From the NCBI RefSeq assembly GCF_030384885.1, contig NZ_CP128613.1: 64,000 nt of DNA; one strand, 5' to 3'. The first letter of the stretch is position 1, and every line of letters begins with the position of its first letter. Position numbers and translations under genes: made by a program. Below the pieces are notes generated by a model. That model was not told where the DNA came from, searched no databases, and saw nothing but the letters and a program-made list of their open reading frames with translations. Shown one piece after another: positions 8,874 through 37,433 of this stretch. The DNA is from Escherichia coli. GTDB lineage: Bacteria; Pseudomonadota; Gammaproteobacteria; Enterobacterales; Enterobacteriaceae.

Positions 8874-9371
8874 ATGAACAAAACAGAATTTTACGCGGAT
8901 TTAAACCGTGACTTTAACGCGCTGATGGCAGGAGAAACCAGTTTTCTGGCAACGCTGGCAAACACCAGTGCGTTGTTATATGAGCGTCTCACTGACGTAA
9001 ACTGGGCAGGTTTTTATTTACTTGAGGACGAGACGTTGGTTCTCGGACCGTTTCAGGGCAAAATTGCTTGTGTACGCATCCCCGTCGGGCGAGGTGTGTG
9101 TGGCACTGCAGTTGCCCGTAATGAAGTGCAGCGAATCGAGGATGTTCACGCTTTTGACGGACATATTGCCTGTGATGCAGCAAGTAATTCTGAAATTGTC
9201 CTACCGCTGGTGGTGAAAAATCAGATTATTGGTGTTCTCGATATCGACAGTACCGTCTTCGGTCGCTTTACAGACGAGGACGAGCAGGGCTTACGTCAGC
9301 TTGTGGCACAGCTTGAAAAGGTGCTTGCAATGACGGATTACAAAAAATTCTTTGCGAGCGTCGCAGGATAA
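8874..9371 (+). CDS. msrC: Free methionine-(R)-sulfoxide reductase (GAF domain)
   Basis: Product MNKTEFYADLNRDFNALMAGETSFLATLANTS... 165 aa from internal Met of ORF 8820..9371. Confidence 0.88.
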   Translation: MNKTEFYADLNRDFNALMAGETSFLATLANTSALLYERLTDVNWAGFYLLEDETLVLGPFQGKIACVRIPVGRGVCGTAVARNEVQRIEDVHAFDGHIACDAASNSEIVLPLVVKNQIIGVLDIDSTVFGRFTDEDEQGLRQLVAQLEKVLAMTDYKKFFASVAG

Positions 9372-9467
9372 TCAACGGATAACGTAGCATTTACTGATGG
9401 CGTCATTATAATGACGCCTGTTCATGCCTGCGCTTGTTGGCTACGTCCGTTGTAATCAGGAAATTTC

Positions 9468-10166
9468 ATGGAAAATCAACCTAAGTTGAATAGCAGTAAA
9501 GAAGTAATCGCGTTTCTGGCCGAACGTTTTCCCCACTGTTTCAGTGCGGAAGGTGAAGCGCGTCCGCTGAAAATCGGTATTTTTCAGGATTTGGTCGATC
9601 GTGTTGCCGGGGAAATGAACCTGAGCAAAACGCAATTGCGATCCGCTTTACGTCTCTATACCTCGAGCTGGCGTTACCTTTACGGTGTTAAACCCGGCGC
9701 AACGCGTGTCGATCTTGACGGCAACCCATGCGGTGAGCTGGACGAGCAACATGTAGAGCATGCTCGCAAGCAGCTTGAAGAAGCGAAAGCACGTGTTCAG
9801 GCACAGCGTGCTGAGCAGCAAGCGAAAAAACGCGAAGCTGCCGCAGCTGCTGGTGAGAAAGAAGACGCACCGCGCCGTGAACGCAAGCCACGTCCGACCA
9901 CGCCACGCCGCAAAGAAGGCGCTGAGCGTAAACCACGTGCGCAAAAGCCGGTAGAGAAAGCGCCAAAAACAGCAAAAGCACCTCGCGAAGAACAGCACAC
10001 CCCAGTTTCTGACATTTCAGCTCTGACTGTCGGACAAGCCCTGAAGGTGAAAGCGGGTCAAAACGCGATGGATGCCACCGTATTAGAAATCACCAAAGAC
10101 GGCGTCCGCGTCCAACTGAATTCGGGTATGTCTTTGATTGTGCGCGCAGAACACCTGGTGTTCTGA
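9468..10166 (+). CDS. proQ: RNA chaperone ProQ
   Basis: 232-aa product [25 protein letters not shown]... with FinO-like N-domain, basic Ala/Lys/Pro/Arg-rich linker and C-terminal Tudor-like domain. Confidence 0.93.
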
Positions 10167-10185
10167 AACGGAGGCCGGGCCAGGC

Positions 10186-12234
10186 ATGAACATGTTTTTT
10201 AGGCTTACCGCGTTAGCTGGCCTGCTTGCAATAGCAGGCCAGACCTTCGCTGTAGAAGATATCACGCGTGCTGATCAAATTCCGGTGTTAAAGGAAGAGA
10301 CGCAGCATGCGACGGTGAGTGAGCGCGTAACGTCGCGCTTCACCCGTTCTCATTATCGCCAGTTCGACCTCGATCAGGCATTTTCGGCTAAAATCTTTGA
10401 CCGCTACCTGAATCTGCTCGATTACAGCCACAACGTGCTGCTGGCAAGCGATGTTGAACAGTTCGCAAAAAAGAAAACCGAGTTGGGTGATGAACTGCGT
10501 TCAGGCAAACTCGACGTTTTCTACGGTCTCTACAATCTGGCACAAAAGCGCCGTTTTGAACGTTACCAGTACGCTTTGTCGGTACTGGAAAAGCCGATGG
10601 ATTTCACCGGCAACGACACTTATAACCTTGACCGCAGCAAAGCGCCCTGGCCGAAAAACGAGGCTGAGTTGAACGCGCTGTGGGACAGTAAAGTCAAATT
10701 CGACGAGTTAAGTCTTAAGCTGACAGGAAAAACGGATAAAGAAATTCGTGAAACCCTGACTCGCCGCTATAAATTTGCTATTCGTCGTCTGGCGCAAACC
10801 AACAGCGAAGATGTTTTCTCGCTGGCAATGACGGCGTTTGCACGTGAAATCGACCCGCATACCAACTATCTTTCCCCGCGTAATACCGAACAGTTCAACA
10901 CTGAAATGAGTTTGTCGCTGGAAGGTATTGGCGCAGTGCTGCAAATGGATGATGACTACACCGTTATCAATTCGATGGTGGCAGGTGGCCCGGCAGCGAA
11001 GAGTAAAGCTATCAGCGTTGGTGACAAAATTGTCGGTGTTGGTCAAACAGGCAAGCCGATGGTTGACGTGATTGGCTGGCGTCTTGATGACGTGGTTGCC
11101 TTAATTAAAGGGCCGAAGGGCAGTAAAGTTCGTCTGGAAATTTTACCTGCTGGTAAAGGGACCAAGACCCGTACTGTAACGTTGACCCGTGAACGTATTC
11201 GCCTCGAAGACCGCGCGGTTAAAATGTCGGTGAAGACCGTCGGTAAAGAGAAAGTTGGCGTGCTGGATATTCCTGGCTTCTATGTGGGTTTGACAGATGA
11301 TGTCAAAGTACAACTGCAGAAACTGGAAAAACAGAATGTCAGCAGTGTGATCATCGACCTGCGTAGCAATGGCGGTGGGGCGTTGACCGAGGCAGTATCG
11401 CTTTCAGGCCTGTTTATTCCTGCAGGTCCGATTGTTCAGGTTCGTGATAACAACGGTAAAGTTCGTGAAGACAGCGATACCGACGGTCAGGTCTTCTATA
11501 AAGGCCCGCTGGTGGTGCTGGTTGACCGCTTTAGTGCTTCGGCTTCAGAAATCTTTGCTGCGGCAATGCAGGATTACGGTCGTGCGCTGGTTGTGGGTGA
11601 ACCGACATTTGGTAAAGGCACTGTCCAGCAGTACCGTTCATTGAACCGTATTTACGATCAGATGTTACGTCCTGAATGGCCAGCTTTGGGTTCTGTTCAA
11701 TACACGATCCAGAAATTCTATCGCGTTAACGGCGGCAGTACGCAACGTAAGGGCGTAACGCCAGACATCATCATGCCGACAGGTAATGAAGAAACGGAAA
11801 CGGGAGAGAAATTTGAAGATAACGCGCTGCCGTGGGATAGCATTGATGCTGCAACCTATGTGAAATCAGGCGATTTAACGGCCTTTGAACCGGAGTTGCT
11901 GAAGGCGCATAATGCGCGTATCGCGAAAGATCCTGAGTTCCAGAACATCATGAAGGATATCGCGCGCTTCAACGCCATGAAGGACAAGCGCAATATCGTT
12001 TCTCTAAATTACGCGGTGCGTGAGAAAGAGAATAATGAAGATGATGCGACGCGTCTGGCGCGTTTGAACGAACGCTTTAAACGCGAAGGTAAACCGGAGT
12101 TGAAGAAGCTGGATGATCTACCGAAAGATTACCAGGAACCGGATCCTTATCTGGATGAGACGGTGAATATCGCACTCGATTTGGCGAAGCTTGAAAAAGC
12201 CAGACCCGCGGAACAACCCGCTCCCGTCAAGTAA
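10186..12234 (+). CDS. prc: Tail-specific periplasmic protease Prc (Tsp)
   Basis: 682-aa product MNMFFRLTALAGLLAIAGQTFAVEDITRADQ... (signal peptide, PDZ and S41 peptidase regions); begins 19 nt after proQ stop. Confidence 0.93.
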   Translation: MNMFFRLTALAGLLAIAGQTFAVEDITRADQIPVLKEETQHATVSERVTSRFTRSHYRQFDLDQAFSAKIFDRYLNLLDYSHNVLLASDVEQFAKKKTELGDELRSGKLDVFYGLYNLAQKRRFERYQYALSVLEKPMDFTGNDTYNLDRSKAPWPKNEAELNALWDSKVKFDELSLKLTGKTDKEIRETLTRRYKFAIRRLAQTNSEDVFSLAMTAFAREIDPHTNYLSPRNTEQFNTEMSLSLEGIGAVLQMDDDYTVINSMVAGGPAAKSKAISVGDKIVGVGQTGKPMVDVIGWRLDDVVALIKGPKGSKVRLEILPAGKGTKTRTVTLTRERIRLEDRAVKMSVKTVGKEKVGVLDIPGFYVGLTDDVKVQLQKLEKQNVSSVIIDLRSNGGGALTEAVSLSGLFIPAGPIVQVRDNNGKVREDSDTDGQVFYKGPLVVLVDRFSASASEIFAAAMQDYGRALVVGEPTFGKGTVQQYRSLNRIYDQMLRPEWPALGSVQYTIQKFYRVNGGSTQRKGVTPDIIMPTGNEETETGEKFEDNALPWDSIDAATYVKSGDLTAFEPELLKAHNARIAKDPEFQNIMKDIARFNAMKDKRNIVSLNYAVREKENNEDDATRLARLNERFKREGKPELKKLDDLPKDYQEPDPYLDETVNIALDLAKLEKARPAEQPAPVK

Positions 12235-12238
12235 CATC

Positions 12239-12270
12239 AATCAGGCACAAGAAATTGTGCCTGATTTTTT
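12239..12270 (+). terminator. Intrinsic terminator after prc
   Basis: Hairpin TCAGGCACA-AGAAAT-TGTGCCTGA followed by TTTTTT. Confidence 0.7.
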
Positions 12271-16795: not shown

Positions 16796-17410
16796 ATTAT
16801 ACGCACTGTCATGGTGCAACTGCTTCAATTTAAAACTCTGGTCTGACTTCAAATAATTATCATATTATTTATTTGCGTAACGGGATATCAGAAAAAGATA
16901 TTTAGCCCATTAATTTATTAGGATGTTTACATCGGATTTGTGATTAAGCGTGTTATTATTTATTAGCGAAACGTTTCTCTCTTGATTTTTTTGCGCATTC
17001 ATCAATTTTTCTTATTTTAAATTTACAATACCTTTGGGGATTGACTTCTCTTTGGGGTGATTGATAGCCGTTAACTGACTGTTTTATGAGAAAAAGTGAT
17101 ATAACTTTTTATTCATTGCATAGCAGAAAATGTGATATTGCACGCACTATGTAATAACTTCTCCCATTGGCCTGGAACAACTGAACTTATTGAACTATGT
17201 TAGAAAATACGTCAGTTTAAGTATCTGCCTGAACTGGCAAGGTTAAGCACAATGATATATCGGCGCGTATTCCGTTGCATAAGTGTGCAAAAAAAGTGGA
17301 AGACGTATCGAGATTTGTGCGTCTGATCGAGACATGTTTAAAAATGGCTTGCCATAATTAACGTTGTATGTGATAACAGATTTCGGGTTAAACGAGGTAC
17401 AGTTCTGTTT

Positions 17411-17554
17411 ATGTGTGGCATTTTCAGTAAAGAAGTCCTGAGTAAACACGTTGACGTTGAATACCGCTTCTCTGCCGAGCCTTATATTGGTGCCTCATGC
17501 AGTAATGTGTCAGTTTTATCTATGTTATGCCTGCGGGCGAAGAAAACAATCTAA
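17411..17554 (+). CDS. yobF: Small protein YobF (47 aa), co-transcribed with cspC
   Basis: ATG ORF (below track threshold) giving [47 protein letters not shown]; ends 12 nt before cspC. Confidence 0.8.
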
Positions 17555-17566
17555 GGAATTTTTCAA

Positions 17567-17776
17567 ATGGCAAAGATTAAAGGTCAGGTTAAGTGGTTCA
17601 ACGAGTCTAAAGGTTTTGGCTTCATTACTCCGGCTGATGGCAGCAAAGACGTGTTCGTACACTTCTCCGCTATCCAGGGTAATGGCTTCAAAACTCTGGC
17701 TGAAGGTCAGAACGTTGAGTTCGAAATTCAGGACGGTCAGAAAGGTCCGGCAGCTGTTAACGTAACAGCTATCTGA
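17567..17776 (+). CDS. cspC: Cold-shock-domain protein CspC
   Basis: 69-aa product [37 protein letters not shown]... with RNP1/RNP2 motifs. Confidence 0.95.
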
Positions 17777-17822
17777 TCGAATCCACTGATCTGAAGTGTG
17801 AAGACACTTCAATCTCGCTATA

Positions 17823-17849
17823 AAGCCTCGTCGAATGCGAGGCTTTTTA
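17823..17849 (+). terminator. Intrinsic terminator after cspC
   Basis: Hairpin AAGCCTCG-TCGAAT-GCGAGGCTT followed by TTTT. Confidence 0.8.
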
Positions 17850-17941
17850 CTTTGTTTTATCTTCGCTCCTGGCGTTCGGATATTTGCCCGCCGCGTGATT
17901 CGCGTTACACTTGCGGCCTTTAGTATCCTGCCGGAGTTGTC

Positions 17942-35702: not shown

Positions 35703-37388
35703 TTGAAGAAGGTTTGGCTTAACCGTTATCCCGCGGACGTTCCGACGGAGATCAACCCTGACCGTTATCAATCTCTGGTAGATATGTTTGAGCAGTCGGT
35801 CGCGCGCTACGCCGATCAACCCGCGTTTGTGAATATGGGGGAGGTGATGACCTTCCGCAAACTGGAAGAACGCAGTCGCGCGTTTGCCGCTTATTTGCAA
35901 CAAGGGTTGGGACTGAAGAAAGGCGATCGCGTTGCGTTGATGATGCCTAATTTATTGCAATATCCGGTGGCGCTGTTTGGCATTTTGCGTGCCGGGATGA
36001 TTGTCGTAAACGTTAACCCGTTGTATACCCCGCGTGAACTTGAGCATCAGCTTAACGATAGCGGCGCATCGGCGATTGTTATCGTGTCTAACTTTGCCCA
36101 CACTCTGGAAAAAGTGGTTGATAAAACCGCCGTTCAGCACGTTATTCTGACCCGTATGGGCGATCAGCTATCCACGGCAAAAGGCACGGTAGTCAATTTC
36201 GTTGTTAAATACATCAAGCGTCTGGTGCCGAAATACCATCTGCCAGATGCCATTTCATTTCGTAGCGCCCTGCACAACGGCTACCGGATGCAGTACGTCA
36301 AACCCGAACTGGTGCCGGAAGATTTAGCTTTCCTGCAATATACCGGCGGTACCACTGGTGTGGCGAAAGGCGCGATGCTGACTCACCGCAATATGCTGGC
36401 GAATCTGGAACAAGTTAACGCGACTTACGGGCCGCTGTTGCATCCGGGCAAAGAGCTGGTGGTGACGGCACTGCCGCTGTATCACATTTTTGCGCTGACC
36501 ATTAACTGCCTGCTGTTTATTGAACTGGGCGGGCAGAACCTGCTTATCACTAACCCGCGCGATATTCCGGGGTTGGTAAAAGAGTTAGCGAAATATCCGT
36601 TTACCGCGATAACCGGCGTTAACACCTTGTTCAATGCGTTGCTGAACAATAAAGAGTTCCAGCAGCTGGATTTCTCCAGTCTGCACCTTTCCGCAGGCGG
36701 TGGGATGCCTGTTCAGCAAGTGGTGGCAGAACGTTGGGTGAAACTGACAGGACAGTATCTGCTGGAAGGTTATGGCCTGACCGAGTGTGCGCCGCTGGTC
36801 AGCGTTAACCCGTATGATATTGATTATCATAGTGGTAGCATCGGTTTGCCGGTGCCGTCGACGGAAGCCAAACTGGTGGATGATGATGATAATGAAGTAC
36901 CACCGGGTCAACCGGGTGAGCTTTGTGTCAAAGGACCGCAGGTGATGCTGGGTTACTGGCAGCGTCCGGATGCTACCGATGAAATCATCAAAAATGGCTG
37001 GTTACACACCGGCGATATCGCGGTGATGGATGAAGAAGGATTCCTGCGCATTGTCGATCGTAAAAAAGACATGATTCTGGTTTCCGGTTTTAACGTCTAT
37101 CCCAACGAGATTGAAGATGTCGTCATGCAGCATCCTGGCGTACAGGAAGTCGCGGCTGTTGGCGTACCTTCCGGCTCCAGTGGTGAAGCGGTGAAAATCT
37201 TCGTTGTGAAAAAAGATCCATCGCTTACCGAAGAGTCACTGGTGACTTTTTGCCGCCGTCAGCTCACGGGCTACAAAGTACCGAAGCTGGTAGAGTTTCG
37301 TGATGAGTTACCGAAATCTAACGTCGGAAAAATTTTGCGACGAGAATTACGTGACGAAGCGCGCGGCAAAGTGGACAATAAAGCCTGA
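35703..37388 (+). CDS. fadD: Long-chain-fatty-acid--CoA ligase FadD
   Basis: 561-aa product (M)[31 protein letters not shown]... with AMP-binding motif ([12 protein letters not shown]); initiates at TTG 35703, not at the upstream in-frame ATG. Confidence 0.92.
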
Positions 37389-37405
37389 GCGTTAAGTCAG
37401 TCGTC

Positions 37406-37433
37406 AGACGCCGGTTAATCCGGCGTTTTTTTT
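37406..37433 (+). terminator. Intrinsic terminator after fadD, immediately upstream of rnd
   Basis: GACGCCGG-TTAAT-CCGGCGT hairpin followed by T8. Confidence 0.8.

Follow-up and report, generated by a model that had tools for sequence, protein, structure and literature searches.

Two features of the proQ-prc locus of Escherichia coli, a stack of long overlapping reading frames in the middle of proQ and the close spacing of proQ and prc, raise the question of whether the region holds more than an ordinary operon, either as additional genes or as a link between the expression of its two members. The locus was analysed within a 64,000-nt stretch of an E. coli genome (contig NZ_CP128613.1), referred to below as the window, where its genes and their boundaries are as follows.

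9468..10166, + strand: proQ coding sequence, RNA chaperone ProQ, 232 aa (Pfam, RefSeq)
10167..10185, + strand: proQ-prc intergenic spacer, 19 nt, with the prc Shine-Dalgarno (SD) sequence GGAGG at 10170-10174
10186..12234, + strand: prc coding sequence, tail-specific protease, 682 aa (Pfam, RefSeq)
12239..12266, + strand: likely operon terminator, putative in function, a hairpin followed by a T-run 3' of the prc stop

By its sequence, ProQ matches the enterobacterial ProQ/FinO architecture of a FinO domain, a long charged linker and ProQ_C, with an N-terminal FinO/ProQ domain (PF04352, residues 8-115, E=1.6e-40, 137.9 bits against a cut-off of 27) and a C-terminal Tudor-like ProQ_C domain (PF17516, residues 182-232, E=3.9e-24). 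Prc carries TSP_NTD, PDZ, Peptidase_S41 and a C-terminal DUF3340 in that order, all above Pfam cut-offs, a domain content that identifies it as the tail-specific protease, a peptidase S41. The first-pass annotation had placed the prc start 19 nt past the proQ stop, and this is borne out: the gap (AACGGAGGCCGGGCCAGGC) separates the proQ TGA (10164-10166) from the prc ATG (10186-10188), and the coordinates of both genes agree with RefSeq, where an identical E. coli genome is annotated. The span of 9468-10186 given at that stage needs trimming, as proQ itself occupies 9468-10166 and 10186 is the first base of prc. Across 81 loci the spacer is 19 nt long in 69, 20 nt in 10 and 18 nt in one, and ACGGAGG and GGCATGAACA are invariant in the spacer region. 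The two genes form a co-transcribed operon, being encoded on the same strand across a short gap in which no terminator-like site was found on the + strand, and their co-transcription, the polar effects and the 19-20 nt gap have already been published. The stem at 12239..12266 was called on the - strand, but from the ORF translation and sequence context the same palindrome on the + strand is followed by TTTTTT. proQ is present in 5421 of 5426 complete E. coli genomes, and the source strain is 95-99% identical to most E. coli across the proQ-prc stretch. In E. coli K-12 (b1831-b1830) the genes, their order and the 19-nt gap are the same and the leader and junction sequences are identical, with no difference of substance between the two loci; 9648-9998 corresponds to K-12 positions 1915004-1915354. 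Two protein searches returned close relatives or an orphan lineage only. The region is thus almost certainly the ordinary, previously described proQ-prc operon, with extra frames over the linker that are non-genic.

The frames in question lie over, or close to, the linker of ProQ.

9780..10000, + strand: T-depleted, charged low-complexity tract (residues 105-178), encoding the last part of the FinO-domain helix plus the disordered ProQ linker
9648..9998, - strand: shadow ORF of 116 aa, not a gene (codon log-likelihood -0.28 bits/codon)
9688..9981, - strand: shadow ORF of 97 aa in antisense frame '-2', GTG start, not a gene (-0.24 bits/codon)
9760..9954, + strand: shadow ORF of 64 aa in the sense +1 frame, not a gene (-0.37 bits/codon)
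9797..10015, - strand: antisense shadow ORF of 72 aa, not a gene (-0.22 bits/codon)
10083..10265, - strand: antisense ORF of 60 aa over the proQ 3' end and prc start, outside the linker and not conserved

The linker, which separates the FinO and Tudor-like domains, is disordered and charged (PMC5393179). It had initially been characterized as rich in Ala, Lys, Arg and Pro and as GC-rich, and the composition of residues 105-178 (A16 R12 E11 K11 P8 Q6 among 74 residues) and the GC content of 9780-10000 (59% vs 49% across the window) uphold this description, to which Glu must be added. The decisive property, though, is not GC but poverty in T, which makes up 7.2% of the tract compared with 24.8% of the window. 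The codons of a linker rich in Ala, Arg, Glu, Lys and Pro contain almost no T, and since the stop codons TAA, TAG and TGA and their sense-strand reverse complements TTA, CTA and TCA each need one, a shortage of T makes stops scarce in four of the five frames other than that of proQ, and long shadow ORFs arise mechanically. The base frequencies of the tract give a per-codon stop probability of about 0.022 on the + strand and 0.016 on the - strand, against 0.047 at even composition. A search for tandem repeats in the linker found none. Four of the five overlapping ORFs of 60-116 aa initially reported over the linker (all of at least 60 aa) do overlap it, whereas the fifth (10083-10265) sits beyond its downstream end and shares no bases with the others. 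Nowhere else in the 64-kb window do four non-gene ORFs of at least 60 aa overlap as they do in the segment shared by the four, 9797-9954. Such a stack exceeds chance for ordinary sequence, yet it is just what follows from the ProQ protein sequence: nulls in which synonymous codons are reshuffled and the protein is left unchanged contain 3.3±0.7 ORFs of at least 60 aa, against four observed (P(>=4)=0.42), with a longest ORF of 142±37 aa compared with the 116 aa observed.

Codon-usage scoring of the alternative frames, the check proposed at the outset, gave -0.22 to -0.37 bits/codon for the linker ORFs, the same as in 108 shadow ORFs within the window's other genes (median -0.31), while the frame of proQ itself scores +0.29. 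None of the alternative-frame ORFs has a Pfam match, and a collection of 15 billion proteins contains none of their exact sequences. Among 50 Enterobacteriaceae species, thinned at 95% identity from a comparative sample that did not extend to Erwiniaceae, Pectobacteriaceae, Morganellaceae or Budviciaceae, the number of ORFs per species is 2.84 observed vs 2.66 under the null, with three frames at or under the null and frame '-2' over it; the ORF at 9760..9954 occurs in 43 of the 50 (43.9 expected) and that at 9797..10015 in 26 (28.4 expected). Conservation within proQ is lowest in the linker, which carries indels, and no reduction in synonymous divergence was found over the linker or over the ORF stack in the 50 species (obs/exp 1.12 and 1.14, respectively, vs 0.15 and 0.63 at the two ends of proQ). 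In number and length, codon usage, synonymous divergence and database matches, these ORFs therefore support the original description of them as composition artefacts rather than genes.

The excess in frame '-2' invites the alternative that one of the ORFs is a real overlapping gene, for which the antisense 97-aa ORF at 9688-9981 would be the best candidate. This frame contains fewer stops than the synonymous nulls (37 vs 56-68 summed over 50 related species; obs/exp 0.57) and an ORF of at least 60 aa in 37 of the 50 species, where 21 are expected. Same-size segments of prc from the same species, however, give a stop obs/exp of 0.71-1.01, so the deficit is partly a general codon-context bias; the remainder consists of small counts from species that are phylogenetically dependent. 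Furthermore, the frame is broken by at least one stop in 25 of the 50 species. Because sense third positions are antisense second positions in frame '-2', a conserved protein encoded there would suppress synonymous change, yet such change is slightly above expectation over the stack. The candidate itself has shadow-type codon usage, neither a family match nor a database record, and a GTG with no SD-like sequence upstream. A genuine gene in this position is accordingly very improbable. It would resemble the embedded antisense genes of E. coli (pop, antisense to ompA, asa and ano) in being an antisense ORF of about 100 aa wholly within an annotated gene; those genes rest on RNA-seq, Ribo-seq and phenotype, whereas the linker ORFs are known from their sequence and the comparative tests were negative. 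proQ is unmentioned in the papers on pop, asa and ano, and one ribosome-profiling supplement has no 'proQ' entry, an absence that carries little weight. The closer likeness is to shadow ORFs generated by compositional bias within a T-poor or GC-rich host gene, which likewise occupy several frames at once, in numbers that match the null and with shadow codon usage, although here the bias is local (about 220 nt) and derives from the amino acids of a disordered linker, not from genome-wide GC content. The lesson is one of annotation hygiene: a disordered, T-poor linker can open four frames, and ORFs of this kind should not be called genes.

The second part of the question concerns the junction, for which tight coupling of prc to proQ had been claimed. 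The layout supports this in the sense of operon adjacency, the 19-nt gap being conserved and the genes co-transcribed, but not in the sense of termination-reinitiation, in which the stop and start overlap or nearly abut, since the gap is 19 nt and prc has a strong SD sequence of its own, GGAGG. Coupling of that kind reportedly requires overlaps or very short distances, as the title of one paper (PMC10666635) has it. The two most conserved blocks of the locus are the proQ leader and the proQ 3' end together with the prc start, and the elements recognized there are listed below.

9407..9412, + strand: invariant TATAAT, likely -10 element of proQ, at the centre of a 20-bp palindrome (9399-9418)
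9419..9451, + strand: stretch of the proQ leader that complements the prc translation-initiation region (TIR), a candidate cis anti-TIR element
10147..10165, + strand: possible hairpin at the proQ stop, CAGAACAC-CUG-GUGUUCUG, with a 6-bp core CAGAAC/GUUCUG (putative structure)
10167..10192, + strand: prc TIR (SD, spacer, AUG and codon 2), paired with the leader in the model

At the 3' end of proQ, synonymous obs/exp falls to 0.56-0.72 over codons 202-231. The CAGAAC/GUUCUG core is present in 81 of 81 loci although it occupies synonymous sites, and it is included in the MFE; 10130-10215 folds with an unremarkable energy (z=-0.27), no covariation beyond shuffles was found for two small junction hairpins, and a search of 9300-10300 against Rfam at gathering and E<=1 thresholds gave nothing relevant, with one chance miRNA match at E=0.49. 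Nor can the 3' constraint be ascribed to an antisense ORF over the junction, whose frame and length differ between genera: the longest such ORF in other species lies in frame 0, 1 or 2 and spans 25-77 aa, and it is shortened to 36 aa in E. whittamii and Salmonella. The low synonymous divergence of the last 32 proQ codons (10068-10163) could instead reflect a prc-specific promoter within proQ rather than RNA structure or initiation signals. Passages in two papers citing Kerr et al. (2014) place a prc promoter inside the proQ coding sequence, in keeping with the depressed values at codons 202-231. No sigma-70-like site was found in proQ, however, and the only -10-like hexamer within 9468-10186 kept in at least 80% of species is GAAAAT at 9471, at the very start of the gene. 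A promoter as the cause of the constraint is thus rather improbable.

At the 5' end, a scan of 9300-10300 for conserved consensus-like -10 hexamers yields TATAAT alone. It occurs in 47 of 47 species, accompanied by a weak -35, and its spacing would put the start of proQ transcription at about 9419-9420. Neither proQ nor its coordinates were matched in the Cappable-seq and SMRT-Cappable-seq TSS supplements. The leader that would begin there is complementary to the prc TIR: a perfect 12-nt inverted repeat (9419-9430 with 10181-10192) lies within an extended duplex of three to four helices with a predicted energy of -39.7 kcal/mol, which 0 of 3000 shuffles match (z=-4.5), and among 42,640 40-mers from both strands of the 64-kb window no non-trivial partner of the TIR surpasses the leader. 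In the MFE structure of 9419-10265, 9420-9451 pairs with all 25 nt of 10167-10191, from the base past the proQ stop to prc codon 2. The pairing probability of the TIR is 0.73-1.0 under four choices of transcript ends, and the pairing is predicted in 49 of 49 species at a median probability of 0.97. The complementarity is kept in 85 loci and in Hafnia, Edwardsiella, Serratia, Yersinia and Enterobacillus, and in Hafniaceae and Yersiniaceae helix 2 is longer (GGUUGGC with GCCAACC) and helix 3 shorter.

These properties raise the possibility, for now a tentative one drawn from folding models, that the proQ leader of the bicistronic mRNA folds back with its first ~33 nt over ~750 nt onto 10167-10192 and masks the SD and AUG of prc. 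Each arm falls in one of the two best-conserved blocks of the locus, the complementarity persists in Hafniaceae and Yersiniaceae, and the leader arm begins where the invariant TATAAT would set the transcript start. Against this, in a matched control that took the best upstream partner of each of 49 gene starts in the window prc ranks first (z=-4.98) but is no outlier, two other genes reaching -4.89 and -4.84 (p ~0.02-0.06), and when the scan is reversed two unrelated sites bind the leader slightly more strongly than the TIR does. Covariation is not measurable, with a score of 0.042 vs 0.040 in shuffles from columns that are nearly invariant and 87.6% paired as in shuffles, and in three divergent lineages (L084/L085, L093 and L096) both arms have changed and complementarity is lost rather than compensated. 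Equilibrium folding is unreliable for a translated 850-nt mRNA, and the model leans on the transcription start deduced from TATAAT. Conservation of the leader also has another documented cause, as a published RIL-seq table records ChiX/Hfq chimeras on 9406-9498. In a crude scan the full-length ChiX-leader duplex was no better than background (937 of 4262 windows equal), so the link of ChiX to the leader comes from that table only.

Were the leader to mask the prc start, Prc would be made from the full-length mRNA only when the helix is opened. Candidates for opening it are a ribosome that finishes proQ, whose UGA lies 1 nt short of the paired stretch, and a leader-binding factor; transcripts from the reported internal prc promoter would lack the leader and escape masking. 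The mRNA 5' end (9419-9451) may then be a built-in antisense element on the prc ribosome binding site, with Prc gated by proQ-terminating ribosomes or by ChiX/Hfq on the leader, although this is less likely than not. Such masking extends the claim of tight coupling and does not conflict with the identification of the region as an ordinary operon. It would amount to a post-transcriptional coupling of proQ and prc that is undescribed in the literature searched, would link the outputs of a periplasmic protease and a global RNA chaperone, and would also offer part of the reason why conservation in the locus peaks at the leader and the junction. Long-range masking of the ribosome binding site of a downstream cistron occurs in the rpmI-rplT operon, at the MS2/Qbeta coat-replicase junction and in the 5'-3' fold-back of hok mRNA, where the SD and AUG of a later cistron are likewise matched by a complementary segment upstream in the same mRNA. 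In the proQ-prc model, unlike those systems, the upstream arm lies in an untranslated leader and not in a translated cistron, and the pairing comes from sequence and folding. For Qbeta, the long-range masking between coat and replicase has been described (PMC2978339). The paired stretch of proQ-prc begins 1 nt after the upstream stop codon.

The alternative-frame open reading frames (ORFs) that overlie the linker of ProQ, a disordered, charged stretch (residues 105-178, 9780-10000) between the FinO (residues 8-115) and ProQ_C (182-232) Pfam domains, are explained by the amino-acid sequence of ProQ alone. The features concerned, within the RefSeq + strand gene order msrC, proQ, prc and htpX, are as follows.

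9468-10166, + strand, proQ (RefSeq), stop codon at 10164-10166
proQ-prc gap, + strand, 19 nt, AACGGAGGCCGGGCCAGGC, with GGAGG, the prc Shine-Dalgarno sequence (SD), at 10170-10174
10186-12234, + strand, prc (RefSeq), ATG from 10186
12239-12266, hairpin and T-run downstream of prc
9648-9998, - strand, shadow ORF of 116 aa over the linker tract
9688-9981, - strand, shadow ORF of 97 aa over the linker tract
9760-9954, + strand, shadow ORF of 64 aa over the linker tract
9797-10015, - strand, shadow ORF of 72 aa over the linker tract
10083-10265, - strand, fifth ORF, of 60 aa, at the proQ/prc junction

The first-pass annotation had described the linker as GC-rich and rich in Ala, Lys, Arg and Pro, and its 74 residues indeed include A16, R12, E11, K11, P8 and Q6, encoded by DNA of 59% GC (49% for the whole window) and just 7.2% T (24.8% for the whole window). 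It had also counted five ORFs of 60-116 aa there; at a cut-off of 60 aa or more, four cross the linker tract and the fifth lies outside it, at the junction, where its frame and length differ from genus to genus. The other sense frame over the linker is shut by 14 stops, and a four-deep stack of non-gene ORFs occurs within the 64 kb only at 9797-9954. Stop codons (TAA, TAG and TGA, read from the opposite strand as TTA, CTA and TCA) all contain T, and since the linker is T-poor, stops become rarer on both strands; the linker base frequencies give a stop chance per triplet of ∼0.022 (+ strand) and ∼0.016 (- strand) as against ∼0.047. When the ProQ protein was held fixed and codons were either redrawn from window usage or permuted among proQ's own synonymous codons, 3.27±0.72 and 3.34±0.65 ORFs of at least 60 aa were obtained over the linker, respectively (observed, four; P for four or more, 0.42 and 0.43), with the longest reaching 142±37 and 153±35 aa versus the 116 observed.

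Codon log-likelihood scores, which set coding against the corresponding shadow frame after training on 49 further long ORFs, placed the four linker ORFs at -0.22 to -0.37 bits/codon, like the 108 shadow ORFs within other genes (median -0.31), while proQ's own frame scored +0.29. None of the four has a Pfam match, nor is the exact sequence of any of them present among ∼15 billion predicted proteins. In a comparative set of proQ loci from 80 species-level Enterobacteriaceae genomes, thinned at 95% nucleotide identity to 50 sequences (75-94% identical to the window), no synonymous constraint was found over the linker ORFs, the FinO domain having an observed/expected synonymous change of 1.08, the linker 1.12, the ORF stack 1.14 and residues 179-200 a value of 1.20; the test is able to detect constraint, because values of 0.15 and 0.63 were obtained at the gene ends (codons 1-12 and 201-232). 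Conservation within proQ is lowest in the distal linker, which contains indels, and the species carry on average 2.84 alternative ORFs (2.66 expected). As to translation data, proQ has no entry in the one usable Ribo-seq supplement and is not named in the text of a retapamulin study. The agreement of nulls, codon scores, Pfam, protein collection and synonymous test supports the earlier reading of these ORFs as composition artefacts rather than genes, with minor corrections to an otherwise real observation; operon and linker were already known, and the finding as given is ordinary.

The sole departure from the nulls concerns the antisense frame that holds 9688-9981 ('-2'), in which the small and phylogenetically dependent stop counts total 37 over the 50 related species versus 56-68 expected (observed/expected 0.57); the ratio is 0.71-1.01 for prc segments of equal size from these species and 0.94 over the window genes. 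A stop still interrupts this frame in 25 of the 50 species. A conserved protein encoded here was rejected, since it would have to curb sense-strand synonymous change and no such reduction is seen; the deficit is regarded as codon-context bias plus shared ancestry, although this does not explain it in detail.

The 19-nt separation of prc from the proQ stop was correctly noted at the outset, and it is shared by 69 of 81 loci; ten others have 20 nt and one has 18 nt, and ACGGAGG and GGCATGAACA are invariant. The two genes, ∼20 nt apart, are published as co-transcribed, with proQ lesions polar on prc, and a terminator scan found no terminator-like site between them. A prc promoter within proQ is credited to Kerr et al. 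(2014) in two papers; within proQ, neither a sigma-70 scan nor a conserved hexamer search revealed a conserved sigma-70-like element. The annotated ATG is the real prc start: an upstream TTG within proQ, to which the mechanical ORF extends by 48 nt (10138-10185), was rejected, as GGAGG lies 11 nt ahead of the ATG and the MN start is conserved. Synonymous change is lowered (0.56-0.72) in the last 32 proQ codons (10068-10166), and a possible CAGAAC-N7-GUUCUG hairpin (10147-10165) abuts the stop codon in 81 of 81 loci, its pairs showing no variation at all, which makes covariation uninformative. Third positions of ATT GTN CGC GCA GAA CAC at the proQ 3' end are almost invariant. In the prc SD-AUG spacer (10174-10185), GCC-N6/7-GGC occurs in nearly all species and could form a mini-hairpin of 3-5 bp, at times lengthened by a fourth A-U or U-A pair from its variable middle, within shuffle expectation.

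A repeat search showed that 12 nt of the proQ leader (the 5' untranslated segment) at 9419-9430 (TGTTCATGCCTG) form a perfect inverted repeat with the prc start at 10181-10192 (CAGGCATGAACA). Duplexes between the 40 nt past TATAAT and the segment from the proQ stop to prc+15 (RNAduplex) reach -25 to -40 kcal/mol in 85 of 85 loci, as co-linear helices over the AUG, spacer and 5' half of the SD. Minimum-energy folding of 9419-10265 pairs all of 10167-10191 with 9420-9451. The helix keeps a probability of 0.73-1.0 when the transcript ends are placed in four other ways, and across 49 species its median probability is 0.97; sequences and pairing are retained in Edwardsiella, Hafnia, Serratia, Yersinia and Enterobacillus. 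That the leader masks the prc translation-initiation region (TIR, 10167-10192) is a testable, if rather doubtful, hypothesis, kept at that level because evidence points both ways. Of 42,640 window 40-mers, the leader ranks first as a non-trivial partner for the TIR, and none of 3000 shuffles matched the energy; however, in the same search for partners 100-900 nt upstream of 49 gene starts, prc ranks first (z=-4.98) with two others close behind (-4.89 and -4.84), and two unrelated sites pair slightly better with the leader than does the TIR. The helices show no covariation, nearly all columns being invariant, and three divergent lineages altered both arms with loss of complementarity. The proQ transcription start is placed from the -10 element only. 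The data show that the two arms are complementary and that this is conserved; from it we infer that the helix could form in vivo and would then hold down prc translation, and that it might be opened by a ribosome halting at the proQ UGA, just 1 nt before the paired bases begin, or alternatively by a leader-binding factor.

Leader conservation also has another documented cause, which counts against the masking hypothesis. Conservation in the 3.7-kb locus (47 species) peaks in two segments, 10068-10187 and 9400-9511; the latter comprises an invariant TATAAT (9407-9412, the likely proQ promoter -10), the entire leader and codons 1-14 of proQ. The nearby yebS-msrC intergenic region is among the least conserved. 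A published RIL-seq table lists 2490 chiX:::proQ chimeras at K-12 1915504-1915596 (window 9406-9498). By eye, ChiX AUGAAAUUCC is complementary to the proQ SD/AUG region GGAAAUUUCAU with one bulge. A perfect 20-bp palindrome (9399-9418, GGCGTCATTATAATGACGCC; first G replaced by A in K-12) is centred on TATAAT between the msrC stop and the leader, with no T-run after it; it may act as an operator or, in read-through transcripts, as an RNA hairpin, if it has either role.

The window is E. coli chromosomal DNA. Its segment 9300-10400 was matched in 5421 of 5426 complete E. coli genomes, being identical (100%) to that of strain 2013C-4282 and sharing 95-99% identity with most other E. coli; because only 18 of the 5421 are at least 99% identical (the remainder, 95-99%), the window derives either from a minority lineage or from a recombinant segment. 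Prc carries the Pfam domains TSP_NTD, PDZ, S41 and DUF3340. Two loci from reduced 1.15-Mb genomes (AP012554.1 and CP010907.1) retain proQ and lack prc, with an htpX-like M48-family peptidase gene ∼650-720 nt beyond proQ and no called gene between. Elsewhere in the window, gathering-level Rfam matches comprise the overlapping sRNA pair SraC/RyeA (-) and SdsR/RyeB (+) at 1757-1901, a cspA-type thermoregulator leader at 17391-17851 (135 bits) and sroD at 37347-37432.
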